From an uncultured Gammaproteobacteria bacterium (GTDB taxonomy: Bacteria; Pseudomonadota; Gammaproteobacteria; UBA6002), in contig CAVPKM010000007.1 in NCBI GenBank assembly GCA_963705725.1, positions 32,001 to 96,000 of the forward strand: a stretch of DNA of 64,000 bases. The letters run 5' to 3'. Under the pieces are notes generated by a model that was not told the origin of the DNA, did no database searches, and was given only the letters and a program-made list of their open reading frames with translations. The position numbers and the translations under genes were made by a program. Of this stretch, positions 43,456 to 60,900 are shown piece after piece. The first letter of the stretch is position 1. Every line of letters begins with the position of its first letter.

Positions 43456-44706
43456 TTATTGTCGAATCAATCGGAAATTCAAGCCAGGTAAATTGACTTT
43501 CTCTGTCGTTCGATAAGGATTAATATCTAAGCCACCGCGTCTTGTATAACGTCCATAAACCGTGAGTTTTTCTGGGCTGCAACGATTCATGATATCCATA
43601 AAAATGCGCTCAATGCATTGCTCATGAAATTCATTATGATTACGAAAAGAAACAAGATACTGAAGCAAACCTTCTCGATTGATTTGTTTTCCAGTATATG
43701 CAATTTGCACACTACCCCAGTCTGGTTGATTTGTGACTAAGCAATTAGACTTTAATAAGTCAGAATACAAAATTTCTTCTACCGTGTTATCTTTTACCGA
43801 GAGATAATTGGGTTCAACAAGATAGACGGAGCAAGTCACATCTAGGTCATCAATACACTCGCCTTTTGGCGCTGATTGAATTGTAGCAAGCGTTTTTTCT
43901 TTTAAAGATAGCAGTCTTACCTGAACCTCTCCATTTACACGGGAGCTCAAATCACGTTCGACAGTCAACCTAACTTCTTCGCTGTTGGTAAACTGTGTGT
44001 TATTGAACGAATTAAAATAAAGTTTCAATGATTTTGACTCAATTAAATTGTCTGTTGCACAATCTAAATTAATGTTAGCAATCGCAACAATGGGTTTGCC
44101 TTTTTTATTGAGCCATGACACTTCATAATGATTCCAACAATCAAAACCATAAAAAGGAAGATTTTGGGGGTCAACGCCAATTTCTTTCCGTTTGGACTCC
44201 CTTGGAATTGCAAATAACCGTTCTGGATTATAATGCAAATCATAGCTGGATGACTGACCTAATTCAGATTGTCTAAGACCAGCTTGATATCGTTTTTCTA
44301 ATGTTTCATTCATACGCTGACTCTCCAAAATATTGATAATTTGTAATGAACTATACCAGTTCACAAGTACTCCTGCCTTAATCTGATTGGCAATATAGAT
44401 CGTAAGCCTTGCAGCCTCATGGATACAATGTGCTTTCTCCTTCAAAGCTTCCGCCTGAAGGTGCATAGAAGGCAACACCTCAAACTCAGGCCGTTCTAAA
44501 ATTTTTTTAATGGAATCTAATGAAAACCCTAGGAATTTTAAAGTGGCCACTTGTTGTAATCGGATTACATCCTCATCTGAGTACAAGCGATAACCTGCAT
44601 CAGTTCGAAAAGAGGGTTTTAACAAACCAATCTCATCGTAGTATTGCAACGAACGAATACTTAATGCCGTCATTTGACTGATATCTTTAATTTTATGGTA
44701 TTTCAT
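43456..44706 (-). CDS. queF: Fusion: MerR-family HTH + bimodular QueF (preQ0 reductase)
   Basis: IRSLQYYDEIGLLKP..RTDAGYRLY; ESKSLKLYFNS, KSNCLVTNQPDW, EFHEQC, TRRGGLDINP. Confidence 0.9.
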   Translation of the reverse strand: MKYHKIKDISQMTALSIRSLQYYDEIGLLKPSFRTDAGYRLYSDEDVIRLQQVATLKFLGFSLDSIKKILERPEFEVLPSMHLQAEALKEKAHCIHEAARLTIYIANQIKAGVLVNWYSSLQIINILESQRMNETLEKRYQAGLRQSELGQSSSYDLHYNPERLFAIPRESKRKEIGVDPQNLPFYGFDCWNHYEVSWLNKKGKPIVAIANINLDCATDNLIESKSLKLYFNSFNNTQFTNSEEVRLTVERDLSSRVNGEVQVRLLSLKEKTLATIQSAPKGECIDDLDVTCSVYLVEPNYLSVKDNTVEEILYSDLLKSNCLVTNQPDWGSVQIAYTGKQINREGLLQYLVSFRNHNEFHEQCIERIFMDIMNRCSPEKLTVYGRYTRRGGLDINPYRTTEKVNLPGLNFRLIRQ

Positions 44707-44723
44707 TTTGACTCCTGAATTGG

Positions 44724-44754
44724 AGTTTATGCTATCACGCAAGGTGAAGGTCAA
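44724..44754 (-). promoter_or_regulatory. MerR-type promoter with 19-bp spacer and dyad
   Basis: Minus strand TTGACC-ttcaccttgcgtgatagca(19)-TAAACT; TCAC-N5-GTGA palindrome in the spacer. Confidence 0.8.
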
Positions 44755-44854
44755 GAAAAATTATGAGGAAAAAGCCAGGTCAGTGTTTTTCACTGGGTAG
44801 TGTTAGGTAAATAATTTATGGTACAGTCGTTACGAGAAAGCAAAATAAGCTAAC

Positions 44855-45341
44855 CTTAATTTTTCACATTGCTTTTTTTAAAAAATCTGCCACTATAGGA
44901 CACACGAGCGGGAAATTCCCGCCCGTGCGGAACCACTAAGGTGTTAGCGCGCCTAAGGGGTTCTAGCCACAAATTAACCTAACAACACGAGGTTAACTCA
45001 TGACTAACACTAGAATATCACCTATTTGCGCAAACGCGCAAAGTCCTTTTTCTTATTCCTCCCATTTTTTGCCAAACACAAAAGCAAATTCTACCCGTAA
45101 ACCCTCGGTTAGCCGTGAGCATTTGTGGCCGGCGACAGTTTGCTTAGTTTGGCAAGAGGGGTGGATGTTCTCAAGTAACAGGACAATATTCTAAGCAGAG
45201 GGGGATTGATGGCGGGTTGGCTTACTTCCCGCCTTCAATTTTTGAACACAAACCATTGTGCTCAACCTCTCTGCTGTGTTCAGACCTGTAGATAGGTTTT
45301 GCACTGCATTAAGGAAAATCTATGCAGTCGCCTTCAATTCG
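44855..45341 (+). repeat. Structured leader element, copy 1 (~490 bp, contains 64-codon ORF 45000..45194)
   Basis: Colinear with 51458-51946; hairpins retained despite substitutions. Confidence 0.88.
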
Positions 45342-46174
45342 AAGCGAAATTTCCAATCTTGAGGAAGTGCTATAGATGAAGAGGAAATCATTCAGTTATT
45401 CAAGAATCAATCAACAATTGATCCCTATACCAATAAAGTTGTAAAAGCGAAATCTGAATGTGAAGGTCGTCCCATAACACTGTTTGGTTTTCCTAACAGA
45501 GAGCGTGCGGCAAGAATTGAACTTAAATGGCACAAAAAAGTCATCCATAAGTTTTTTAGAGTGGGTGAGCCCTTAGCAGAAGGAAAACAATCAACACCAT
45601 TTTTAATATGGTTAACAACTGTATTGAACAAAAGCATCAAAACCCCATTCCTATCCAAGGCTACTCTAGGCGCAGCTTTATTATTGCGAGTCTAAAATTC
45701 TTACGCATTATGGCGATATGCCAGAATTAATTTTCATGTTGGGGATGACTAAAATTAAACTACTCGAGTAAATTCCGTGACGCAAAGGCAGAAGGGGATT
45801 TAAAATGAGGGCTCCCAATTATGGACATTGCATATGGTGAGGATGTATTAATAGGCTTTCGAACTTTATCATGCCTAAAAGGGATAGAAATCCAGATAAC
45901 CCGCAAGTGCGCTATAAAAAATTTCTTGAGATTTTTAAAGAACGATTAGCTACGATGGAGCCTTTTAGCCATTTGGATTTGAACAAATATGGAAATATCC
46001 TGATTGGTGTAGAGCCGGAGGCAAATGAATCTGATGAAAAAACACAAAACAACCTTCATCTGTTAAGGAGCATTATAATCAATCAGGTTTTTCTAACCTG
46101 ATAAGATTTGAATTTGTGAGCCATTATATTTCCTTCTAACTAGATAGTTGTGAATAGTGAAAAACATGAACGAA

Positions 46175-46637
46175 TTTTTTGCTACTCTCCTGAAATTTGT
46201 CGCGCGATTTATACTACGAATGCAGTTGAATCCGTGAATATGAGTCTTCGGAAGGTCATTAAAAGTAAGCGCGTTTTTCCTTCGGATGATGCCGCTTTGA
46301 AGCAGCTATATTTAGCGTTTAAAAATATTTCAAAAAAATGGACAATGCCAATACGAAATTGGGGTGATGCCATGAATCGTTTTATGATTCTGTTCGAAGG
46401 CAGGCTAAAAGGGGCGATTTAGTTTAAGAACTGATTTAAAATTTTGTGCCTTCGATCGCCTGTGGATATATGCACAAACTGACTCGTTGCACTCGTCAGT
46501 ATTGCGCACATACCCACAGGCACAATAATTTTATTTGTTTATTTAAAAAATTTTTGTTATTTTAATTTCGCTATCTGGAATTCGGTAGCAAAAAATCTGC
46601 TGACTCAACCTGCTTACACAAAATTATTTACGCTACC
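46175..46637 (+). mobile_element. IS256 3' remnant including right IR
   Basis: Near-identical to ~35550-36013. Confidence 0.92.
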
Positions 46638-46669: not shown

Positions 46670-48154
46670 TTGATATTAAAATTTAAAATCTTTTTTTTTG
46701 TATTTTTAGCCACAATTTTTTGTAATTGTTCTGCAAATACAGCTGAAAGTAAAACAAAACATTACCTATTAAAGCCTAGTGGTGAATATTGCGTATCTTT
46801 TGAAGATATACATCTATTAAATACCACTCTTTGTCCTGACCCAAATTTTAATGGTAAGAATGATGCGGACTTTAGCTCAGGGAATAAAGTGCACTGCCAT
46901 GAAATCATGGTCAGGATATATTATCCTACTAGAGAGTTAAATCAAAAAGCACCTTACAATTCTCCTTTTATTAAACAGTTGCAGGATAATATTAAAAACT
47001 CTAAGGATGGCTCTATAAATTTGCAACAGTCCTTAAATGAAATTTATAGTAATACATCTGAAAAAAAATCGGCTATTGATAATAAAGCCTTCCCGATTAT
47101 TTTTTTTAGCCCGGGTTTAGGTTGTTCTGTACAAACTTACGAGAACATTATTACTGAGCTAGTCAGTCATGGATATATTGTGGCTGGAGTGAATACCCCC
47201 TTTTTAAGCGGTAGTATTGAACTCCCTAATCATTATATTGTTAAACCAGTCATACCCCGTTCTACGGATGAGATTGAGAAGTCTTTTATCAATATACAAA
47301 GTAAGGATCTGGAGTTTTGTATTAATAATATTAAAAATTGGAAACATTTACGTGCATATAAAAATATGGACTTTATACACGTAGGCGCTTTTGGACATTC
47401 CATTGGCGGTAGAATTGTAGCAAATTTAACTCATTCGCAATCAAATAAGCTACAAGCCGCAGCTGCTATGGATACGGCAATCGATCCTTCAGGAGATTCG
47501 TTGAGAGGATTTGCTATCCCTTTTATGCATGAAATTGCGGCAAATAAGCTCTCAATTTCCTCATCTCCCTTAAGCTTTGTGCTAAATCAAAATGGCTTTT
47601 TGGTTCATATCTCACCTAGCCCTAATGATAAAAATTACAGTTACCACATGAATTTCTCAGATTTTTCCACCTTACAATATCAGCCAGCTGTTAAGGTTTT
47701 TCTTAATTCTTTGAAACAAAATTCGGAGAAGGATTTTAATATCAAAATTCATCAAAATTCAGTCAATGATGAAATATCACTTGGTTTGGATGAGGAGACT
47801 TATCTTTTAGCTAAAAGAAATAGCAAATGGGAATTAACATACTACAAAGGAAGAAAGAAAATAATAGATCTTGATATTATGAATATTAAAGGACTCAGTG
47901 CGCTGCTAGCCCCTTTAAACAAGCCTAAAGAGTTGAACGCTGCAAGATTAAAACAAGTTAAATTCTCTTTAACTTGTTTTAGAAAAAACATGAATGAACT
48001 AGTGGGTATAGGCAATGGCTGGGAGCTAACAAAATCTATTAATACCCATTTGATAGCTTTTTTTGATACTTTTTTAAAAGGGCAAGATAATATATCATTC
48101 AAGCAGTGTCAGCCCTTAACAACGAATGTTTATATTAAATGTAACCTAAGGTGA
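46670..48154 (+). CDS. Secreted alpha/beta hydrolase (PAF-acetylhydrolase-like)
   Basis: Signal peptide, FPIIFFSPGLG, ELVSHGYIV, GHSIG nucleophile elbow, HMNFSD. Confidence 0.82.
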   Translation: MILKFKIFFFVFLATIFCNCSANTAESKTKHYLLKPSGEYCVSFEDIHLLNTTLCPDPNFNGKNDADFSSGNKVHCHEIMVRIYYPTRELNQKAPYNSPFIKQLQDNIKNSKDGSINLQQSLNEIYSNTSEKKSAIDNKAFPIIFFSPGLGCSVQTYENIITELVSHGYIVAGVNTPFLSGSIELPNHYIVKPVIPRSTDEIEKSFINIQSKDLEFCINNIKNWKHLRAYKNMDFIHVGAFGHSIGGRIVANLTHSQSNKLQAAAAMDTAIDPSGDSLRGFAIPFMHEIAANKLSISSSPLSFVLNQNGFLVHISPSPNDKNYSYHMNFSDFSTLQYQPAVKVFLNSLKQNSEKDFNIKIHQNSVNDEISLGLDEETYLLAKRNSKWELTYYKGRKKIIDLDIMNIKGLSALLAPLNKPKELNAARLKQVKFSLTCFRKNMNELVGIGNGWELTKSINTHLIAFFDTFLKGQDNISFKQCQPLTTNVYIKCNLR

Positions 48155-50808: not shown

Positions 50809-51007
50809 GAATAGCTGTTAAAAAAATCGGATGCTGGTCATTAGAAAAATGTAGAGTGGTTTGTATGAGCCCCAAAAATCATTGGTATTAGTGGCAATAT
50901 GGGTGCTGGAAAAACAACTCTCGCCCACACTCTTCAACAAGATTTACAATCAATTCGGAGTTAAAATCAGCGCAAAGTTTCCTATGCATCATGTCTTTAT
51001 TTCCAAA

Positions 51008-51406
51008 TCAATCAGATACCATAGATGGATGATGAGTAAATTCAACCTCATTGCCTGAGGGATCAAGGATACTAAAAGCTTTTGTTCCAATGCCAAACGT
51101 CTTAGGTTCATCCAGAATTATAACAGGGTATTGTTTGATATATTGATACCAGGCATCCACATCCTGTGGGCAGCTAATGGCAAAACCAAAGTGCTCGAGT
51201 CTTTGAGGTTGAGCAAAATTTGCAGTGTCACCTTGATGCAAAGAAATGTTATCTTCGCTGGAGGTTAAATAGGCATAATCGTTTGTTTCATGCTCGAGCG
51301 TCATTCCAATGATATTTGTATAAAAATCAATGCATTCCTGTAGATTATTGACGCGCAGTGCAATGTGTCTAAGCCCTCTCATTTTTGGCTTTGTATTTGC
51401 ATTCAT
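51008..51406 (-). CDS. VOC/glyoxalase-family protein
   Basis: LRHIALRV, LEHFGF, LDPSGNEVEF. Confidence 0.88.
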   Translation of the reverse strand: MNANTKPKMRGLRHIALRVNNLQECIDFYTNIIGMTLEHETNDYAYLTSSEDNISLHQGDTANFAQPQRLEHFGFAISCPQDVDAWYQYIKQYPVIILDEPKTFGIGTKAFSILDPSGNEVEFTHHPSMVSD

Positions 51407-51457
51407 TGCTTAATCCTTTCTCTTGAGTAATGAGAAGGCAGGAAAAAATAATCTCCT

Positions 51458-51946
51458 CTTAATTTTTCAGATTGCTTTTTTTAAAAAATCTGCCACTATA
51501 AACACACGGACGGGGAAACCCCCGCCCGTGCGGAACCACGAAGGTGTTAGAGCACCCAAGGGTTCTAGCCACAAACTAACCTAACAACACGAGGTTAACT
51601 CATGACTAGCATTAGGATATCACCTACTTGCGCCAACACGCAAAGTCCTTTTTCTTATTCCTCCCATTTTTTGCCCAATACAAAAGCCAATTGCACCCGT
51701 AAACCCTCGGTTAGCCGTGAGCAGTTGTGGCCGGAAGCAATTTGCTTGGTTCGGCAAGCGGGAGGGAGATTCCCGAGAATTAGGACAATATTCTAAGCAG
51801 AGGGGGTTGATGGCGGGCTGAATTGTCACCCGCCTTCAATTTTGAACACAACAACTTGTGCTCAACCTCTCTGCTGTGTCCCAACCCTTTAGATAGGTTG
51901 TGCACTGCGTATAAGGAAAATCTTTATGCAGTCACCTGCCATTCAA
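51458..51946 (+). repeat. Structured leader element, copy 2 (contains 64-codon ORF 51602..51796)
   Basis: Colinear with 44855-45341; ends within the start of ORF 51926. Confidence 0.88.
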
Positions 51947-52357
51947 TTTGATGCTGCCCCTTGGCCGCTTAAGCCTAATGAAATTATGCAGCTCTCATCA
52001 TTCATTGCCATTGTGCTGCGCCATTTTCGCCAATGTGCTTCTTCCTGTGAAGCGAGCTATTTATCTCAGTTACAAGTCATTTCAGACTGTCATTACTTAG
52101 TTCATTTAGCACAGCAGGAAGATAGCCTCTTTTCCAGGCCTCTCTCGCTTGAGCAGATTTCAAGCGTTGCGCTTAATCTGGCAGAAGCCATCAATACCCT
52201 TAGCGATAAAATCCGGTTAATGGATTCTCCCTGGTTTTATGCGGATTTTTACTCAAGCGTCAATTATCTCTTAAGCGATAAGTTTGGTTACTTAAGTCAA
52301 GACTTCACGCTCATCAAGCAACTGCGAAAAAAAATTAATCGGGTTAAAGGAGAATAG
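51926..52357 (+). CDS. Hypothetical helical protein, first gene of CDPS operon
   Basis: RBS taagga; 2-nt gap to the CDPS gene. Confidence 0.65.
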   Translation: MQSPAIQFDAAPWPLKPNEIMQLSSFIAIVLRHFRQCASSCEASYLSQLQVISDCHYLVHLAQQEDSLFSRPLSLEQISSVALNLAEAINTLSDKIRLMDSPWFYADFYSSVNYLLSDKFGYLSQDFTLIKQLRKKINRVKGE

Positions 52358-52359
52358 GC

Positions 52360-53079
52360 ATGGAAACAACCCATACAGAGATCTGTCGTCCCCTTAAAGC
52401 AAGCTTTGCAGGAGCCAAAGCTTTTCGCCACCATTTCAGCCGGGCAACTGCCCAGCTCACCATCAGCATTGGCCAAGCGGTGCACGAAGGAGAGCGCTTA
52501 GCCGCTACCTTAGCGCTCATCAATCGCTCCTTTGCCAGTTGTAAGGTGATGATCGATGATAGTATTCAATGGTATACCTTAGCGATTAACGCGCCGGAAC
52601 AATCCTCCTCCCTCTTACTCCAAAACGCAATTGCAGCAGGGGATCACTACCTGAATACCACCTCAGCACTCTTTCAGTCATCACTCACCATTCCTTATGA
52701 AATTGTCCGCTGGAAAGATTGGCACGGCCTGCCCAGTTGGCAAACGGCGGTGGCCTTGATGCATCAAGACTATGAGGAAAATACGCTCCTTCGCAGCGAA
52801 ATTCAAAAAAACATCACGACCTTTCTAGATCGCTATGAGAAGCGGGGAACGGATAAGACCTATGATCGATCTCGCGCCTGGCGACTCTGCCTTCATTACT
52901 TATTAGAAGAATGTGCGGTGATGCGTACCTTTTGGGTGGAACTGGGTTGTCATTATGAGGTGTATCCGAGTGGTCGCAATGAAGCGATGCGCGCCACCTA
53001 TGAGCATTATATTCAGCCTTATCATCCGCATTTATTAACATCGATTGCGCTGCGTTTTCATCGACTCGGCAGGGAATAA
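52360..53079 (+). CDS. tRNA-dependent cyclodipeptide synthase (XYP subfamily)
   Basis: ISIGQAVHEG (catalytic Ser), DSIQ, IVRWKDW, YLLEEC, YEVYP. Confidence 0.82.
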   Translation: METTHTEICRPLKASFAGAKAFRHHFSRATAQLTISIGQAVHEGERLAATLALINRSFASCKVMIDDSIQWYTLAINAPEQSSSLLLQNAIAAGDHYLNTTSALFQSSLTIPYEIVRWKDWHGLPSWQTAVALMHQDYEENTLLRSEIQKNITTFLDRYEKRGTDKTYDRSRAWRLCLHYLLEECAVMRTFWVELGCHYEVYPSGRNEAMRATYEHYIQPYHPHLLTSIALRFHRLGRE

Positions 53080-53090
53080 AAGGAGTGGCG

Positions 53091-54722
53091 ATGAACCCCA
53101 CGAAAAGAGTAGCAGCAGGCAAGCAAGCGGTGAATTGTCAACTGGTGCTAGAAAGTTTACTGCGACATTTACCCGGTCATGTCTATTGGAAAAATACAGA
53201 TGGGATTTATCTTGGTTGTAATGATCGTCAAGCACAAAGTTTAGGTCTGACTTTAGGCCGTGAAGTAATCGGTAAAACCGATTTTGAGCTCCCTTGGCAG
53301 GCAGAATTAGCAGCGCATTTTTGGGAAAATGATCGCCAAGTGTTAGTGAGCGGCTTATCAAAAACGGTAGAAGAAATGGCGGTGATAGATGGGAAGGCAG
53401 CCATGGTGTGGAGCATCAAGGTTCCCTTAAAAACCGATCAAGGTCAAATGGTCGGGGTGCTGGGGATTTCCATTGATATCACGGCGCAAAAAAAGGCAGA
53501 AGCCAAATTAATCCAAGCTAAGGAGAATGTGGAAGCGGCCTATTTGACTAAAACCCGATTTTTAGAAAACCTGCGTCATGATATTCGCACCCCGATCAGC
53601 GGGATGCGTGGCTGCATCCAGTTGTTGCAAGACTGCTTAGAGGAAAAAAATCCAGAAATAAAGCAAGCCAAAGAGTATTTGCAGGATGTAGATAGTTCGA
53701 GTAGCGAGCTCTTAAGCTTATTAAATAAGGTGACGATGAGCACTCAAGCCATGGATGGGGTGTCTGCGCTTAAAAAGCAGCGCGTTAATCTAAAGTGTCA
53801 ACTGCTTTCTCTATTAAAGCTCAATCAAGCACGAGCAAAAGAAAAAGGACTGAAGTTAGCGCTGAAATATGATGAATCGATTCCCTTATTAATTGGGGAT
53901 GGCGAGCGTATTGAGCAAATTCTGGTAGAGTTAATGAGCAATGCCTTAAATTTTACGGATAAGGGCGGCATTACCCTCACCGCTCAGCTTGCAAAGCAAG
54001 CAGGAGAGCGGGTCATTATTAAAATGATGGTTCAAGATACCGGAATTGGCATGACCCTTGAAAAGCAGCAAGCCCTATTTACGCGCTTACCACATTTATC
54101 TGCTGCTTATTCAGGCTTATCACGTGGGATGGGCCTAGGATTAGCCTTAATCAAACAAATCATCGATGAACTGGAGGGAGAGATTTATGTCGACAGTTGT
54201 CCAAAAAAAGGCACGACTTATACCTGTATCTTGCCGCTACAAGTTGCATTATTAAATGAGCAGGAACTGCAGCTGAATAAAAAAGCAGGCAATACGATTT
54301 CGCTCACTATGGCTGCAAAAGCACAGCCATTTTCTTCCCCAAAGGCGAGTGCAATTCGGGTATTGTTAGTGGAAGATGACCTGATCGCCCGGAAAGTGAG
54401 CGCGGTCTTGCTCACCAAGCTTGGATGTCAGGTCAGCCTAGCTGAAACGGTGGCTTCTGCTCTTGAAAAAATTAAATCGGAAAGTTATGAATTAGTTTTT
54501 ATGGACATTGGGTTACCAGATGGCAGTGGGATAGAGGTAGCAAAAGTAGCGAGGCGAAATAAGGCCAGTCAAAATCAAGCCACACCCATTATTGCGGTGT
54601 CGGCCCATGTTGATGAGGCAGGCAAAGCCGCTTGTCATCTTGCGGGGATGGATATCGTGCTTGCTAAGCCCTTATCGGAGGAAAAGGTGCGAGCTATATT
54701 GGCGCTTTTTGTTCGGAAATGA
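53091..54722 (+). CDS. Soluble hybrid histidine kinase PAS-HisKA-HATPase-REC
   Basis: PGHVYWK..G.YLGCN..GKTDFELPW; HDIRTP; NALNFT, DTGIG, GMGLGL; VEDD, MDIGLPD, KP; no TM segment. Confidence 0.92.
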   Translation: MNPTKRVAAGKQAVNCQLVLESLLRHLPGHVYWKNTDGIYLGCNDRQAQSLGLTLGREVIGKTDFELPWQAELAAHFWENDRQVLVSGLSKTVEEMAVIDGKAAMVWSIKVPLKTDQGQMVGVLGISIDITAQKKAEAKLIQAKENVEAAYLTKTRFLENLRHDIRTPISGMRGCIQLLQDCLEEKNPEIKQAKEYLQDVDSSSSELLSLLNKVTMSTQAMDGVSALKKQRVNLKCQLLSLLKLNQARAKEKGLKLALKYDESIPLLIGDGERIEQILVELMSNALNFTDKGGITLTAQLAKQAGERVIIKMMVQDTGIGMTLEKQQALFTRLPHLSAAYSGLSRGMGLGLALIKQIIDELEGEIYVDSCPKKGTTYTCILPLQVALLNEQELQLNKKAGNTISLTMAAKAQPFSSPKASAIRVLLVEDDLIARKVSAVLLTKLGCQVSLAETVASALEKIKSESYELVFMDIGLPDGSGIEVAKVARRNKASQNQATPIIAVSAHVDEAGKAACHLAGMDIVLAKPLSEEKVRAILALFVRK

Positions 54723-54933: not shown

Positions 54934-57900
54934 ATGCAATACAAGCAGCAAGCGTATCCCTTTAGTTTAATTTCAAGTAAGGGATTAGGAAAAACCTACT
55001 CGTCCTTCGATAAAATTGGACCGCTTCTGCCGATGAAAGGATTTGGCGCGGCAGGATTAACATTTTATCCGAATGTGGCAATAGGGAACTTATTTTTTCA
55101 AGACCATATGCTAAAAATTGAAGAGCAGGGCGGGATCCTTGAGCTTGGGTTTATTTACAATAGTCAAGCAGCAAGCGTGGATCCGGTTTGGCAGTTTGCG
55201 CATCCTAAATTTTATTTGTTATCGCGTTATTCTCAGCAAGTAGTGCTTTCTGAAGCAGATGGCTATCGTACAATCTATACGTTAGATCTCAAAAGCGGTT
55301 TTTTTTATAGTGAGACAGGCTCAAGAAAGGGAATCGCTTGGCTTTATTATCAGGAAGCCAATCAGCAATGGGTGCATTATCGACCTTTTGATCAAGTGAC
55401 GGAATATTTTAATGCGGAAGGATTGCTAGTAAAGCGTGAAACGAAAGCCGGTAACATCACAATCTATTATTATGATGCGTATTTACGCTTAAAAGAAATC
55501 ATTGGTGCAAGTGGTAACCGGTATAAATTTCACTATCAAGAAAATACACTTTCTCTTTATTTAGTGACGCTTGATTCCTCCGAGCAATTGTTGCAATCCT
55601 ATTTGTTTGATCTTGAGGGAAGACTTACCTTAAGCCAAACGCCGGATGGGTATCAAACCCAGTATTTTTACAGTGAAGTGTCTGCTCGGCAATTATTGGC
55701 GGTGAAACAATCTGACCAAACGATGTTAGGTTTTGGTTATGATCATTCCAATCGATTAGTGGAATGTTGTTTAGGCGATGCCTCCACGTTTACTTTGCAG
55801 TATCCAAATGAAACACAGCCGGATTTTTTGTTCAGCGATCCTGTTGGTGGCACGACCTCACTCAAGCTAAATGACCAGGTAGCTATCATTGAAATTGCGC
55901 GATCTCAAGGTATCGGTGCTGATTTTAAGGAAAAATTGATTACCGCCTATCATTACAATGCGCTGACACAACTGACGCTTATCCTTCATCCTAACCAGGG
56001 CCAGGAAGGCTTAAGTTATACCGATCGCTTTGGGTTGGTGCGCCTGAACGAAGGGCCAAATGGGCAAATGGTCGAGCAGGTCTATGAAGAAGAAGCGATG
56101 GCTGTTCGTTTGGTTGCTGACATTCAGTATGAAACGGTTCATGGCAGAAAAAATACGCTTTTAGCGACTTATTATGTTTATGACACCGATTTTAATCATC
56201 AATATACTTTTTTACGATTTAAGATTAACCCCTTAGGCAACGTGACGGAATATCGTCCGGATCGATGTGGCAATATTGCATCTGAACGAACCTATTTGGG
56301 CGGGATTTTTGATCGAAATCAGCGAGATCCCCGCCAGGCGCCGACTTTATCAGAGATAAAAGCTTGGGTGAGCCTGCAAGATGCCGCTAAGGTGAATTTA
56401 GTTGCCTATGAATATAATCTGAGAGGGCAATGGCAACATTACTGTCAATACGCTGAGGTCGATCAAGCAGGAAAGGGGAAACTCGATGAAGCCATGGGTC
56501 AGATTTATACCTTTCGAACGCTGTATGGGGAACCTTTTTTTAAGCAGGTGAAACAAAATAATATTCAGGCAGCAGTGACCCGGCAGCGCTTTGATGCGCT
56601 AGAGCGCCTGCTGAGTAGGACCGATGCCCTTAATCAAACCACGACGGATGACTATTTTGATGCTAAAGGCCAGGTAAAAATCATTTATCCGAATGGGAAA
56701 ATTGAGATTCGGCAACAAGATGCGAGAGGAAATGGCGTTTCCCTGCAAGAGATCGTAGCGGAACAAGAGAGACTCACGCAGTATCGGCGAGATGCAAACG
56801 GGCGGGTGGTATTAACGACCAGGCCCGATGGGGAGTTTCTTTATACTTTTTTTGATCATCAAGATCGCCTCAAGTTTTGTGTCACAGCGCTTGGAATCGT
56901 CACCCAGCAGGTTTATGCGGTTAAAAACCGTTTTGTTTCGACCACCGTTTATGCCAAGTGCATTGATACTCGGCAATTATGGCCGAGTGATCCGCCACCA
57001 CCTGGCTCCCTGCCGCAAGTTGATCGCTTGATCGCCTTATTGCCGGGTATTGCGGATGAGAGTATTGATCAAACACATTATACCTTTTTTGATTTTTCTG
57101 ATCGCCCGATTTATGAGGTGGATGAGGAAGGGTATGTCACGCAATTTCAGTACAATGCGCGCAATCAAAAGCGGGTTGAGATTGCGTATGCCAACCCTTT
57201 AGAGGATGAGCAGTTAGCGGAGTTAAAAGCAGGAAAGACACTTGCTCTTCCCATTGATTTCAATCAAGACCGAGTAAAACGGGATTTCTATGATAATAGT
57301 GGCGCGCTAATTGGTGAGCAGAATAGCGCAGGTTATGTGACTGAGTATGTGTTAGATGGGGCAGGAAATACGAAAGAATGCATTCGATATCACACCCCGA
57401 TGCCGCTTGATTTAGCACTACGCGATTTTGATCAAGTGCGGCCAAATGCTGCTTTACTCGATGCGCATACCTATTATTTTCGCAATAGCAAAGGAGCGCT
57501 GGTCGGACAATTCGATCCCGCAGATAGATGGGGAGAATATTATTATACGGCGCATCACGCTTACCCCAATGGCTTAATCCAAAAAAGTATTCGATATAGC
57601 ACTAAGGTGAGTTTTCCTCTGCTTCTGCCCCCTCCAGCCAATCCCGAAGCCGATGAAATCACTCTCTATCGCTATGATCTATTAGGTAGGCTTTTAGAGA
57701 CCGTTTTTCCGAATCAGAAAAAAGACCGTCTTCAATATAATGTGTCGGGTAACGTGATTTCAGCTAAATCTCAGGATTTACACTTTCCTGACTTGATGGA
57801 TCCTGATCATCAGCGAGCCAGGCATGCGCATTACGATGCTTGGGGCCAAAAAGTTAAGGAAACGAATGAGTTTGATGGGGAAATCTTCCATCATTATGAC

Positions 57901-60900
57901 CCGATAACCGGGCTGAAAACCCATACCACGGATGCCCTAAATCGGACCACGTATTATTTTTATGATCTTGATCAACGGTGGGTGGCCTCAGTCAATCCGG
58001 TAGGGGCAGTAGTGAAATACGAGCGGGATGCGTTTGGGGAGCGAATTAAAACGATTCGTTATGCCACGCCTGCTAAGGGAATCCCTACAGGGGGTTACCT
58101 CACGCCAGAGATTGAGAAACACTTTATTGCGGATCCTGAAAAAGACCAAGTGGTGTTATTCAAACGCAATCGTTTGAGCCAAGTTGTAGAGCAAATCGAT
58201 GCGAAAGGCAACATGAGCACGTTTAAGCATAATGGCTTTAAGCAAGTAGTGGAAAAAAATTTACCGGTAGCAGGTCCCCATCCGACGTTGAGGTTATCCC
58301 ACGAATTTGAAGTGCGTGGATTAGCGATTAACACGCGGATTGAAGCACTGGATACCCCGGTTGAGCACATTGAGCGGGCTTATGCGAATTTTTATGGCAA
58401 AGAGACTTATAAAAAAGATGCGCGTGGCGGGGTTTATCGTACGTTTTATGGTTGTCGCGGTTTAGTGAGTCAAAAAATTCAAGAAAGCGGCGCTGGCGAG
58501 GCGAGTCATTTTTTCACTTATAATGCGTTTGAAGCGTTGGCTACTGAAACCGATGCGTTGAATCAGACTACCACCTATCACTACAATCATCTGGCCCGTC
58601 AACATACTCTGCATTTCCCGGTTCATGGTGTCACGCAAACCCTTATCCACAATATTTTTGATGAAAAAATTCAGGAAACGGACAGTTTGGGCAATCGCCA
58701 ACGCTTCGAGCATGCAGCAAATGGTCAAGTGCAGATTGATGAAGATCCACTGGGACACATCACGCGTAGCGAGTTTGACCTGATGGGGCAGCTCGAGAGC
58801 AAGATTGATGCTAAGGGAGTGGAAACAAGGTTTAAATACAATGAAGCGGGGGATCTATTATTCCAAATTGAAGATGCGGCGGGCTTAGGGCTTCAAACCC
58901 ACTATCAACGCGATGTGTTTGGCAATGCGCTGCAAATCACGAATCCCCGTCAAGTCGTCACGCAAAATACCTATGACCAAACAAACTGCTTAACTTCAAG
59001 CGTGCTGGATGCGATTGATTCCGGTTTAAATTTAACGATTCATCCCACTTACAATGCAATGGGAAAGGAAGAGGGCAAGCAGCAAGGCGATAAGGTTAAC
59101 CCTTTGCAGTATGAAGAAAAATATCCTCTCGATGGCCGTGGTCGACAGATCGGTAAAACCCTCGATCCAACTGGCTTAGCGCTCGCTGCTCACCAGCACT
59201 TGAATGCAGCAGGAGACGTTATTGCTGAAGTGGATTTCAATGGCAATGTGACGCGCAAATTTTATGATGATTTCGGGCAGCTTCGTTTTGTGGTGGACCC
59301 AGAAGGTGGGGTGACTGAGACAAATTATGATCTTGTGAATCGAATCCATTATACGCGTCTTTATGAAAAAAGCATTAATCCGGATCAACTGACCGATCAA
59401 ACCGATCTTCACACCTTGTTAGGGTTAGTCGAGGTAGATTCGCAAGATAGCATCCTGTTTTATTTTTATGATGCAGATGGGTTAGCGCGGTTTGAAGTCA
59501 ACGGGTTAGGAGTAGTGGCGGAAGGTGCTACGACCTAGCGCGCCGTAGAATCAAGACAATCCATTATGCCACGCCGATTAACCCCGCGCTGTTGCCGGTC
59601 CTAACCACGGCCGCACTGAGCAGGCTGGTCAAACTGGAAGAAAAAAATCCCAAAAACCGCATCTCATATTTTATTTTAGATGCAAAAGGCCAGCAGCGAT
59701 TTTGCATTGATGCTGAACATTATCTCTCTGAACAGCGCTATGATGCCAATGGAAATGGGATTGCCAACATTGCCTATGCGCATCGCCTTGCTGATCCAGA
59801 GAAAATTGCTCGACTCGCGCCACTTGAGGTATTAAAAAATATCACGCTCGATCCTTTACTCGATCGCACCAGCTATCAGGTTTTTGATCACGTAAACCGA
59901 CCGGCATTTCGTGTGGATGGGGAAGGGGCGGTCACACAATATTTTCATGATGAAAATGGAAATCTTATTCAAACGTGTCAATATGCAACCAAAATTGCGG
60001 TGCCAAGTGAGTACCAAGACTTAGTGATTCGATTAAGGCAATTGACACCGAGTCCCCAGATTGATCGCATTAATGAATACAGATTTGACCACGCCGATCG
60101 TCAAATTGGCGAAAAAGATCCCTTGGGTTATGTGGATGAATTTAGAAAAGATGCGGTAGGAAACACGATTTTGCATCGTGATCGTGCAGGCAATGATTGG
60201 GGATATCAGCATGATGGGGCCAATCGCTTAACCCTTGAAACGCTGCCAAAGGTGGGTGTGACCGCTATGACAAAAAAGATCGCGCATAACCAGGTGACAT
60301 TGTCTGACCAAACCCGCGACATGGCCATTGAAAATAAAAAAATTTTAGATGCCAATGGCAATGAAACACAAATCATCCGAGCGGCGAATACGGATGCCCC
60401 AAGAATTCTCCACTGTACTTACAATAAGCGCCGTCAACTTGTTGGAACGCGCATGAATCAAGTGCTGATTGATGATGAAACGAAAGCCCCAAGCTTTGAT
60501 TTCCCGCCGGTTAAAGTCGTCGATCTCACTACCCAGATTGTTTATAACGCAAAAAAATTAAAAGTTTGTCAGCAGGATGAATCCGGCAATTGGTCTTTTT
60601 TTGTTTATGATTGTGAAGGCAATTTATGTGATGAGGTCGATCCCCTTGGCGCGGTCAAGCAGTATGAATACAGTGCCTTTGGAGAGGTGATCCACGAAAG
60701 GGCCTTTGCCACTCCCATTCAGTTAGATTTAGCGCTTTTTACGCAAACCGGTATTCCGCTTTCAGTGATTCAAGCACCCGGCGTGATCGAACCCAGCCTT
60801 GATGATCGTCTAAAAACCTATGTGCGGGATAATCGTGGTGATATTATCTTAATTGAACAAGGTCCCACCTTCTATTATTTGCCAAACGGCAGCGATCAGC

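Follow-up and report, generated by a model that had tools for sequence, protein, structure and literature searches.

What does a cyclodipeptide synthase (CDPS) do when the gene that follows it encodes a sensor kinase? Enzymes of this family convert two aminoacyl-tRNAs to a cyclodipeptide in the cytoplasm. In a stretch of 64,000 nucleotides (nt) from an uncultured gammaproteobacterium (assembly GCA_963705725.1, contig CAVPKM010000007.1, positions 32,001 to 96,000; the whole stretch is called the window in the following), the gene of a CDPS is preceded by a structured leader and a small gene and followed by the gene of a soluble histidine kinase with a PAS input domain. The most economical reading of this arrangement, to which we assign a probability of roughly 0.55, is that the cyclodipeptide is the ligand of the PAS domain and that synthase and kinase would thus form a make-and-sense module. 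As computational cases for a functional pair go, the coupling of CDPS and PAS kinase as such is among the better supported.

The three genes and the kinase domains, the latter assigned with Pfam, are located as follows (positions in the window; aa, amino acids):

51926-52357, + strand: open reading frame (ORF) of 143 aa, from the ORF list
52360-53079, + strand: ORF of the XYP-type CDPS, 239 aa, 2 nt after the 143-aa ORF
53085-54722, + strand: soluble hybrid histidine kinase, 545 aa, with a GTG start and a 5-nt gap after the CDPS gene
53160-53492, + strand: PAS domain of the kinase (PAS_4), aa 26-136
53550-53732, + strand: HisKA domain of the kinase, aa 156-216
53895-54242, + strand: HATPase_c domain of the kinase, aa 271-386
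54360-54701, + strand: REC domain of the kinase (Response_reg), aa 426-539

These coordinates agree with the layout of three genes on one strand, spacing included, that had been proposed in an initial annotation made from the letters alone; the 11-nt gap given there between CDPS and kinase results from an alternative ATG start at 53091. Likewise in agreement with that annotation, neither a tailoring oxidase nor a P450, a methyltransferase or an exporter adjoins the CDPS gene among the ORFs and Pfam matches at the locus.

The assignment of the 239-aa protein as a CDPS was borne out by comparison with members of the XYP subfamily. A phmmer search against the PDB sequences matched chain 5ocd_A at E=7.2e-55 (residues 12-235 against 10-231) and three other chains, namely 5mlq, 9i5m and 9iam, at E values around 1e-22 (about 1.7e-22 for 5mlq and 9i5m). 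The motifs ISIGQ, YLLEE and VYP, initially read as counterparts of AlbC S37, Y178, E182 and Y202 (numbering as in the initial annotation and the literature), are present in the protein, and S36, Y180, E183/E184 and Y202-P203 are invariant in 24 aligned members of the family; a large protein collection yielded 51 relatives of the CDPS. Because of the match to 5ocd_A and the invariant catalytic residues, the protein is, as judged from its sequence, a genuine XYP-subfamily CDPS with an intact set of catalytic residues.

The structure 5OCD is that of the CDPS of Fluoribacter dumoffii (Fdum-CDPS), described as using two Gly-tRNAs (PMC12945691), and the XYP CDPS of L. lansingensis is reported to make cGE (PMC5816076). 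The window enzyme shares full-length homology, the catalytic residues and the XYP motif with Fdum-CDPS. However, Fdum-CDPS has L and P where the group of the window CDPS has Q32 and T34. In AlbC, residues 33 and 35 are P1-pocket positions (PMC5816076); if the usual AlbC offset holds, Q32 and T34 occupy two P1-pocket positions, and the product of the window CDPS therefore probably differs from that of Fdum-CDPS. A prediction of the product itself from the pocket residues was dropped, since the mapping of AlbC positions onto XYP enzymes is uncertain.

For the kinase, the Pfam domains listed above confirm the soluble PAS-HisKA-HATPase-REC protein of the initial annotation. The H-box histidine H165, the N-box at 286, the G1 box at 318 and the receiver aspartate D474 are intact, the G2 box was recognised by eye in the translated sequence, and there is no transmembrane segment, the highest 19-residue Kyte-Doolittle mean being 1.25. 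HisKA with its histidine, the HATPase boxes, the REC aspartate and the PAS input together indicate that the protein is a hybrid sensor histidine kinase. The two-component repertoire of the host is tiny and comprises six REC domains and one stand-alone Hpt.

In the proposed mechanism, a leader, an enzyme for a small molecule and a cytoplasmic PAS kinase would constitute one cassette of a family, the enzyme being an XYP CDPS in the present case. The CDPS would produce its cyclodipeptide from two aminoacyl-tRNAs in the cytoplasm, as is known of the family, and the PAS domain of the co-transcribed kinase would sense this product, or else the CDPS would control the PAS domain directly in some other way. 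Sensing would alter autophosphorylation at H165 and transfer to the kinase's own receiver residue D474, from where the phosphoryl group might pass via the single stand-alone Hpt to one of the few response regulators. A molecule as small as a cyclodipeptide probably diffuses, which would allow the circuit to act as a gauge of cell density or confinement; since its synthesis draws on charged tRNA, the circuit could equally report aminoacyl-tRNA supply.

Conservation of the linkage outside the window had been set as a test beforehand. One genome per species was sampled, in which 98 pattern matches led to 79 loci with a gene for a CDPS relative; from each locus, the ORFs of 60 aa or more were compared with the window proteins, and genes at most 600 nt apart or fused were counted as adjacent. 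The loci stem from Legionella, Fluoribacter, Tatlockia, Coxiellaceae and many uncultured Gammaproteobacteria, and a few from metagenome-assembled genomes (MAGs) labelled Rickettsiaceae, Burkholderiales, Neisseriaceae and Bacteroides. The host of the window (assembly of 1.58 Mb in 20 contigs, 92% complete) belongs to a GTDB order of five genomes, all of one genus, and is therefore placed in an uncultured gammaproteobacterial lineage outside Legionella and Coxiella. A PAS kinase was found adjoining or fused to the CDPS in 73 of the 79 loci, so that the linkage claimed initially is conserved elsewhere, well in excess of chance. The two genes are co-directional with the kinase downstream in 43 of these loci, convergent in 19 (nearly all from Legionella and close relatives), divergent in six, mixed in one and fused in four. 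Among the loci outside the 73, the CDPS sits at a contig edge in three (L009, L015, L039), one gene separates CDPS and kinase in two (L070, L073), and one (L026) has no kinase within 7 kb of the CDPS. The fused proteins contain the following Pfam domains:

L056, 867 aa: CDPS, two PAS, HisKA, HATPase, REC
L057, 595 aa: CDPS, PAS, HisKA, HATPase
L074, 767 aa: CDPS, PAS, HisKA, HATPase, REC
L077, 845 aa: CDPS, PAS, HATPase

A search for longer relatives yielded a further CDPS-PAS fusion, P0052 (436 aa, 54% identical to the window CDPS), with an apparent frameshift in its tail where HisKA should begin.

These data bear on the question whether the linkage has any functional meaning, or whether leader, enzyme and kinase are merely copied together as a mobile or recombining cassette. 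The cassettes are indeed multi-copy and recently amplified, eight carbamoyltransferase copies in the related genome G004 (see below) being nearly identical, and insertion sequence (IS) elements and deletion derivatives surround the cassettes in the host genome. However, adjacency persists in lineages that have diverged widely, with CDPS identity falling as low as 22-35%; it is seen in three gene orientations and also without the leader, which is found in one genus only, and the fusions argue against chance as well. A linkage without functional meaning is thus, in our estimation, highly improbable.

The order of the Legionella genome G005, the Legionellales, was surveyed as a whole, with CDPS and PAS coordinates compared by hand. 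The CDPS profile matched 68 of the 203 scored genomes at E≤1e-10. For thirty of the best 39 PAS matches (E≤3.4e-37), a strong CDPS match is located at most about 3 kb away; of the others, seven belong to genomes that lack a strong CDPS, one is 10.5 kb off and one is at a contig edge. Second-tier PAS matches (around 1e-27, in ORFs of about 560 aa) were found in 25 Legionellales genomes at a distance of about 1.3 kb from weak partial CDPS matches, in divergent orientation. The CDPS-like ORFs in question have 430-495 aa and represent a long, very divergent CDPS clade, and in the locus that was verified (L083) a 476-aa ORF of this kind lies beside a 563-aa PAS-HisKA-HATPase-REC kinase. These ORFs probably correspond to the long CDPSs of Legionellaceae, mentioned in PMC5816076, that carry an additional C-terminal domain.

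Co-divergence was assessed from pairwise distances over 51 CDPS/kinase pairs with complete domains. The correlation between CDPS and PAS amounted to r=0.93, compared to 0.73 between CDPS and kinase core and 0.72 between the PAS domain and its own core; the partial correlation of CDPS and PAS given the core was 0.85, that of CDPS and core given the PAS 0.23, and none of 999 Mantel permutations reached the observed CDPS-PAS value. After dereplication to 34 pairs the coefficients were 0.75 (CDPS-PAS), 0.36 (CDPS-core) and 0.33 (PAS-core), all of them obtained with a crude measure that relies on raw identity, approximate domain cuts and non-independent related pairs, which takes some weight from the case for a make-and-sense module. 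Read as they stand, the values say that CDPS and PAS have been inherited and have changed in closer step with each other than have the kinase's own two halves.

Tight co-divergence of CDPS and PAS would also fit an explanation in which the CDPS itself is the input domain of the kinase by protein contact, with binding or turnover of aminoacyl-tRNA being passed on allosterically and the cyclodipeptide being a by-product. In the fusions the CDPS occupies the N-terminal position of a sensor domain; a PAS-only ORF follows the CDPS in L053 and L065, and likewise in P0052; and many of the hosts have genomes of 1.3-1.7 million bases, for which density sensing is less expected. Nevertheless, the genes are convergent and not co-translated in 19 of the 79 loci, and the carbamoyltransferase and methyltransferase partners of related kinases use no tRNA. 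In addition, the catalytic residues of the CDPS are invariant, and therefore the chemistry, beyond binding, appears to be under selection. Allosteric control of the kinase by its CDPS seems quite unlikely to us.

The make-and-sense reading, in turn, can be followed into cassettes with a different enzyme, the enzyme slot being interchangeable. In the same-genus genome G004, the leader was found at ten further places (L085-L094). It is followed by a carbamoyltransferase and a kinase at eight of them and by an S-adenosylmethionine (SAM) methyltransferase and a kinase of 523 aa at one, and the remaining leader has no clear kinase. The carbamoyltransferase has 357-359 aa (OTCace_N 1e-35, OTCace 3e-28), with N-acetylornithine carbamoyltransferase as its best NCBIfam match (214 bits, under the cut-off). 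Its kinases closely resemble that of the window; they are intact in six cases (561 or 565 aa, E around 1e-130) and split or truncated in L087 and L092. In a quick tree of 24 kinases, the CDPS-linked and the carbamoyltransferase-linked kinases of G004 form separate clades with 100% support each, and the window kinase forms a third clade together with a second kinase copy of the host genome (C10, see below); the mutual order of the three clades is unresolved, and the group that they form nests among CDPS-linked kinases of other lineages. The PAS domains of carbamoyltransferase- and methyltransferase-linked kinases carry W with MV or VL, in contrast to Y/F with QA in CDPS-linked ones. In a distant Legionellales MAG (L070, 7055-10420), a truncated CDPS remnant is followed by a carbamoyltransferase that is 66% identical to that of G004 and then by a kinase (561 aa, 40% identical) with the same PAS signature as the carbamoyltransferase-linked kinases. 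This locus looks like a fossil of an enzyme swap, and because of its recurrence in such a distant genome, the carbamoyltransferase-kinase combination is a second conserved pair type.

Several observations weigh against the make-and-sense reading. As to the synthase, TIGR04539 gave only 28.4 bits on it, under the cut-off of 45, and the Pfam CDPS model gave no match at E≤1; curated models seem to under-represent the clade of the window CDPS, and the match to solved structures outweighs these low scores. As to the sensor, its PAS subtype was matched in 154 of the 204 genomes of the Legionellales, a single genome holding as many as 17 copies, and is thus far commoner than the CDPS (see above) and not exclusive to CDPS loci. 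Seven Legionellales genomes (G112, G097, G131, G091, G096, G113, G149) hold an apparent orthologue of the kinase, of about 820 aa in six and of 537 aa in G131 and with its PAS among the best matches, without a strong CDPS; these kinases may be sensors that have outlived their synthase. The kinase of L084 groups with a CDPS-linked Legionella kinase with 99% support. Moreover, the leader is common to cassettes with different enzymes and therefore not cyclodipeptide-specific. In the host genome itself, a second cassette (C10:283-2718) has a leader (94% identical), a 109-aa ORF and an intact kinase (C10:357-1994, 99.2% identical in DNA), the CDPS having been deleted.

Ligand specificity is further weakened by the 15 best PAS-kinase loci from genomes scored CDPS-negative (E≤1e-10), 13 of which have kept the QA motif. 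Their neighbours are a long CDPS-like ORF just under the threshold in five loci, an unrelated family of about 440 aa in seven, a flavin adenine dinucleotide (FAD) oxidoreductase in one and nothing recognisable in two. What the PAS domain senses may therefore be shared by all partners and not be an enzyme-specific product. QA, present in 90 of 118 CDPS-linked PAS domains, had been considered as a CDPS-specific PAS signature and was ruled out by these 13 kinases, which leaves only the W/MV and W/VL signatures of the carbamoyltransferase- and methyltransferase-linked kinases as informative. The members of the 440-aa family (435-460 aa; L096-L099, L101, L105, L107) lie directly upstream of the kinase on the same strand, are 30-87% identical to each other and gave no match in Pfam, NCBIfam or PDB; the protein may be another partner enzyme.

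Because the same PAS subtype is so widely used beside other partners, the allosteric explanation stays alive, and so does one in which the kinase is a pathway regulator. In the latter, the PAS domain would sense some other cytoplasmic cue (redox, a metabolite or a host signal), the relay would control the adjoining enzyme, and the product would be exported and directed at the host or at competitors. Apart from the wide distribution of the PAS subtype and the retention of QA beside unrelated partners, this would be in line with a single leader serving cassettes with three different enzymes, with the persistence of orphan kinases without a CDPS, and with reports in which CDPSs of intracellular bacteria are read as host-directed or defensive (PMC2922099, PMC10132079). 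However, four CDPS-PAS kinase fusions and one more are known from our search, and fusion of a regulator to the enzyme under its control is rare; it is the PAS domain, not the kinase core, with which the CDPS co-diverges; and the PAS signatures shift with the partner enzyme in two lineages. Furthermore, the cassettes contain neither an exporter nor a DNA-binding regulator: among the 79 loci there is no receiver ORF of the size of a DNA-binding regulator, and the REC-only ORFs, 17 in number, have 119-162 aa. Taken together, we regard a role of the kinase as mere pathway regulator as unlikely.

With sensing of the cyclodipeptide kept as the preferred reading, a broader rule seems to emerge, namely that each kinase of this PAS-kinase family has one partner gene beside its own, in most cases that of an enzyme. 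Tentatively, Legionellales and related intracellular Gammaproteobacteria (including some MAGs labelled Rickettsiaceae) might then carry diversified make-and-sense modules, in which the PAS domain reads the product of the partner enzyme, be it a CDPS as in most cases or, sometimes, a carbamoyltransferase, a methyltransferase or the unknown 440-aa protein, and which in one genus would be gated by a new class of translated riboregulator.

The host genome also documents how such cassettes come apart. The 109-aa ORF of the second cassette is an in-frame join of the first 63 residues of the 143-aa protein and the last 20 of the CDPS, with 923 bp deleted, and the kinase behind it is an orphan sensor left after synthase loss (locus L082 corresponds to C10:503-3562). 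Just upstream of this cassette, a stand-alone REC protein of 137 aa is encoded (Response_reg 7.9e-19). At C10:41298-42017, a second CDPS paralogue is encoded (239 aa, 31% identical), and the neighbouring PAS kinase is interrupted by ORFs of transposase-like character (C10:41298-46764), which by our reading are IS66- and IS256-like.

The leader and its elements, together with the two further copies in the host genome, are located as follows:

51431-51925, + strand: leader, a structured repeat 5' of the 143-aa ORF
51472-51502, + strand: promoter-like AT-rich block TTGCTT ... TATAAA, conserved at the 5' edge of the repeat
51505-51530, + strand: first hairpin of the minimum free energy (MFE) fold; its stem letters vary between copies and complementarity is kept
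51569-51609 (CCACAAA + CUCAUG) with 51707-51730 (CGUGAG...UUGUGG), + strand: long-range helix, RNAalifold on 18 copies
51602-51796, + strand: small ORF (64 codons), which stays open in all 18 copies
51812-51843, + strand: terminator-like hairpin GGCGGG...CCCGCC with a U-run; six of eight pairs change on both sides
C10:2232-2717: leader copy 2, 94% identical
44839-45321, + strand: leader copy 3, 86% identical; only a 17-codon stub and a fragment of a transposase come after it

The structured leader proposed in the initial annotation is confirmed both by its folding energy and by covariation. The MFE of -150.4 kcal/mol compares with -117.9 ± 5.9 kcal/mol for shuffled sequences (z=-5.5), and none of 100 shuffles folded as well. 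RNAalifold, applied to 18 aligned copies, predicted 60 pairs, of which 55 were scored: 94.3% of the cells hold standard pairs, compared to 86.7 ± 0.6% in shuffled alignments (0 of 500 as high), 21 pairs change on both sides, compared to 4-8 with slid partners, and the covariation score is 0.30, compared to 0.04-0.10 in the controls.

Beyond what had been annotated, the leader is a multi-copy translated RNA element. It constitutes a 495-base repeat, with a repeated RNA of about 400 nt, that has three copies in the host genome, the third of which, at 44839-45321, is a decayed cassette, and nhmmer and blastn found at least 16 further copies in same-genus genomes and one related MAG. In a profile search, the leader was detected directly upstream of the CDPS in L001, L002, L003, L005 and L006 (one MAG) and was not found in the other 74 CDPS loci; besides the ten places in G004, it occurs once in G001, a copy overlooked by BLAST and recovered by the profile. 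A comparison with Rfam 15 gave no match at E≤1.

The best-conserved pairing concerns the long-range helix (helix 7), which is paired in 100% of the cells, with eight AU<->GC double changes at one pair. In the predicted fold it encloses the first 40 or so codons of the small ORF and sequesters the AUG of this ORF. Across the copies, its partner strand reads CAUGAG...UUUGUGG and lies about 110-190 nt downstream; the next element of the leader, in 5' to 3' order, is an internal hairpin. The small ORF has 59, 64, 65 or 75 codons and stops at the same conserved TAA/TAG in 17 of 18 copies; according to mononucleotide shuffles, the chance of so long an ORF is 1.8-4.3% per lineage. Its substitutions are spread evenly over the codon positions (16/17/17), and therefore the peptide itself does not seem to be under visible selection; conserved blocks are frozen at third positions too. 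The pattern reads as selection on the leader RNA and on its translatability. The idea that the small ORF encodes a conserved protein was rejected, given these even substitutions and the fact that no called homologue was found anywhere.

The terminator-like hairpin begins 16 nt past the stop of the small ORF in the window (about 18-20 nt on the alignment) and is enclosed by a G-rich/C-rich helix. The AT-rich block at the 5' edge presumably acts as a promoter. A scan for consensus promoters and terminators gave nothing above shuffles, and the AT-rich block was not called because its spacer has 19 nt. A search for an ANTAR antiterminator partner gave no match, a negative that carries no weight, as the control matched in none of the 14 well-known genomes either. 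With an AUG locked in a helix, an ORF of 64 codons and a terminator hairpin 16 nt after its stop, the leader probably uses translation-coupled attenuation to gate read-through into the operon. It resembles leaders of the trp, pheA or erm type in having a promoter-proximal small ORF and then a terminator-like hairpin upstream of an operon. It differs from these in that its ORF, at 59-75 codons, is long, lacks any run of regulatory codons and keeps its AUG in a covarying helix, and in that the element is multi-copy, serves operons with different enzymes and belongs to no Rfam family.

The first gene of the operon encodes a member of a rare family, for which 12 full-length relatives (33-48% identity) were retrieved among 1.8 billion representatives. 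H33 is invariant in the alignment of this 143-aa family, and the window protein gave no match in Pfam, NCBIfam or PDB, nor any atlas hit. Members occur in two of 204 Legionellales genomes and in three of the five genomes of the host genus; within the set of 79 loci, the family is absent from the other CDPS loci apart from a weak member in L050 and L051, where it follows CDPS, kinase and REC. Relatives lie beside receiver-domain genes in L114, L050 and L051, and in G001, a genome without a CDPS, the leader is followed by the 143-aa homologue and then by a stand-alone REC. The protein is probably an optional phosphorelay accessory that travels with receiver domains. An Hpt-like relay function was considered and is kept at low odds: there is no Pfam Hpt match, hhalign against the Hpt of the genome gave 0.4%, and the canonical Hpt is encoded elsewhere.

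The surroundings of the cassette can be described more briefly. Upstream, Pfam matches identify a glyoxalase (- strand) and a TPMT methyltransferase. Downstream, the following feature was recorded:

54934, + strand: start of an RHS-repeat ORF, 211 nt past the kinase (Pfam RHS_repeat E=2.6e-41)

The distance of about 210 bp given initially is thus accurate. The suggestion that the kinase controls the RHS protein was rejected, as none of the 79 related loci contains an RHS relative. The RHS-repeat gene is in fact made up of two giant ORFs on the + strand, 54934-59538 (1534 aa) and, about 50 nt further on, one from 59592 to the end of the window (about 2800 aa, running past it), which are either two genes or one interrupted gene. 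Near 51000-51500 the GC content steps from about 0.33-0.37 to 0.43-0.48 (from about 0.34 to about 0.46 around 51400), a level that extends from the leader through the RHS gene; cassette and RHS region may differ in origin from the flank.

Further upstream, an ORF of 432 aa on the - strand (43456-44754) fuses a MerR-type helix-turn-helix (7e-16) to QueF_N (2.8e-44) and QueF (5.5e-29), an unusual combination of regulator and enzyme just upstream of the decayed third leader copy. Between this leader copy and the CDPS cassette lie a fragment of a Mutator-family transposase (46150-46422, + strand; Transposase_mut 4.3e-9) and an ORF of 494 aa (46670-48154, + strand) that weakly matches PAF-acetylhydrolase/alpha-beta hydrolase.

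How does the proposed module relate to what has been described before? PAS domains are listed among the commonest non-biosynthetic domains near CDPSs, with quorum sensing suggested in one sentence that names neither a kinase nor the clade nor the fusions (Skinnider 2018, PMC5767969). CDPSs of Legionella and Rickettsiella are described as stand-alone, with no fusions noted there and with host manipulation suggested as their role, and the same group found CDPSs without tailoring enzymes in intracellular bacteria puzzling (Aravind 2010, PMC2922099); the Megaira paper reads its CDPSs as defensive (PMC10132079). In the CDPS literature searched, no description of a CDPS-PAS kinase module was found (the supplements of PMC5816076 and PMC5767969, which may list kinase neighbours, lie outside this search), and, beyond the remark in PMC5767969, none of a dedicated receptor encoded next to a CDPS.

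Cyclodipeptides have often been proposed as bacterial signals, and a conserved, sometimes fused pair of CDPS and PAS kinase is a concrete and testable candidate for a receptor. If the make-and-sense reading is true, cyclodipeptides would be true signalling molecules with a dedicated receptor, and the persistence of tailoring-free CDPSs in genome-reduced intracellular bacteria would be explained. With its interchangeable enzyme slot, the module comes with natural controls for ligand specificity, and the leader, as an unclassified structured RNA with an embedded ORF, is worth study as a regulatory element on its own. The occurrence of the pairing in many intracellular bacteria suggests a little-studied make-and-sense circuit.

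The nearest parallels in arrangement are the autoinducer synthases with a cognate sensor kinase, LqsA/LqsS (and LqsT) of Legionella and CqsA/CqsS of Vibrio. As in these systems, a gene for a small-molecule synthase lies beside that of a sensor kinase feeding a phosphorelay, an adjacency conserved here in most of the loci sampled, and, as in Lqs, a second, orphan copy of the sensor is found elsewhere in the genome (C10:357-1994). This comparison is one of arrangement, homology to Lqs or Cqs proteins being neither sought nor claimed. The synthases differ, the window enzyme being a tRNA-dependent CDPS and not an acyltransferase dependent on pyridoxal phosphate. In contrast to the membrane-integral LqsS and CqsS, the window sensor is soluble with a PAS input and lacks a transmembrane segment, and therefore the locus is not classed as a member of Lqs/Cqs but only as similar in its working. 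Finally, synthase and sensor are fused into one protein in some related lineages, a further difference from Lqs and Cqs. With AlbC and AlbA/B of albonoursin and YvmC and CypX of pulcherriminic acid biosynthesis, in turn, the locus has the enzyme family in common; there the CDPS is accompanied by tailoring enzymes, whereas the partner of the window CDPS is a sensor kinase.

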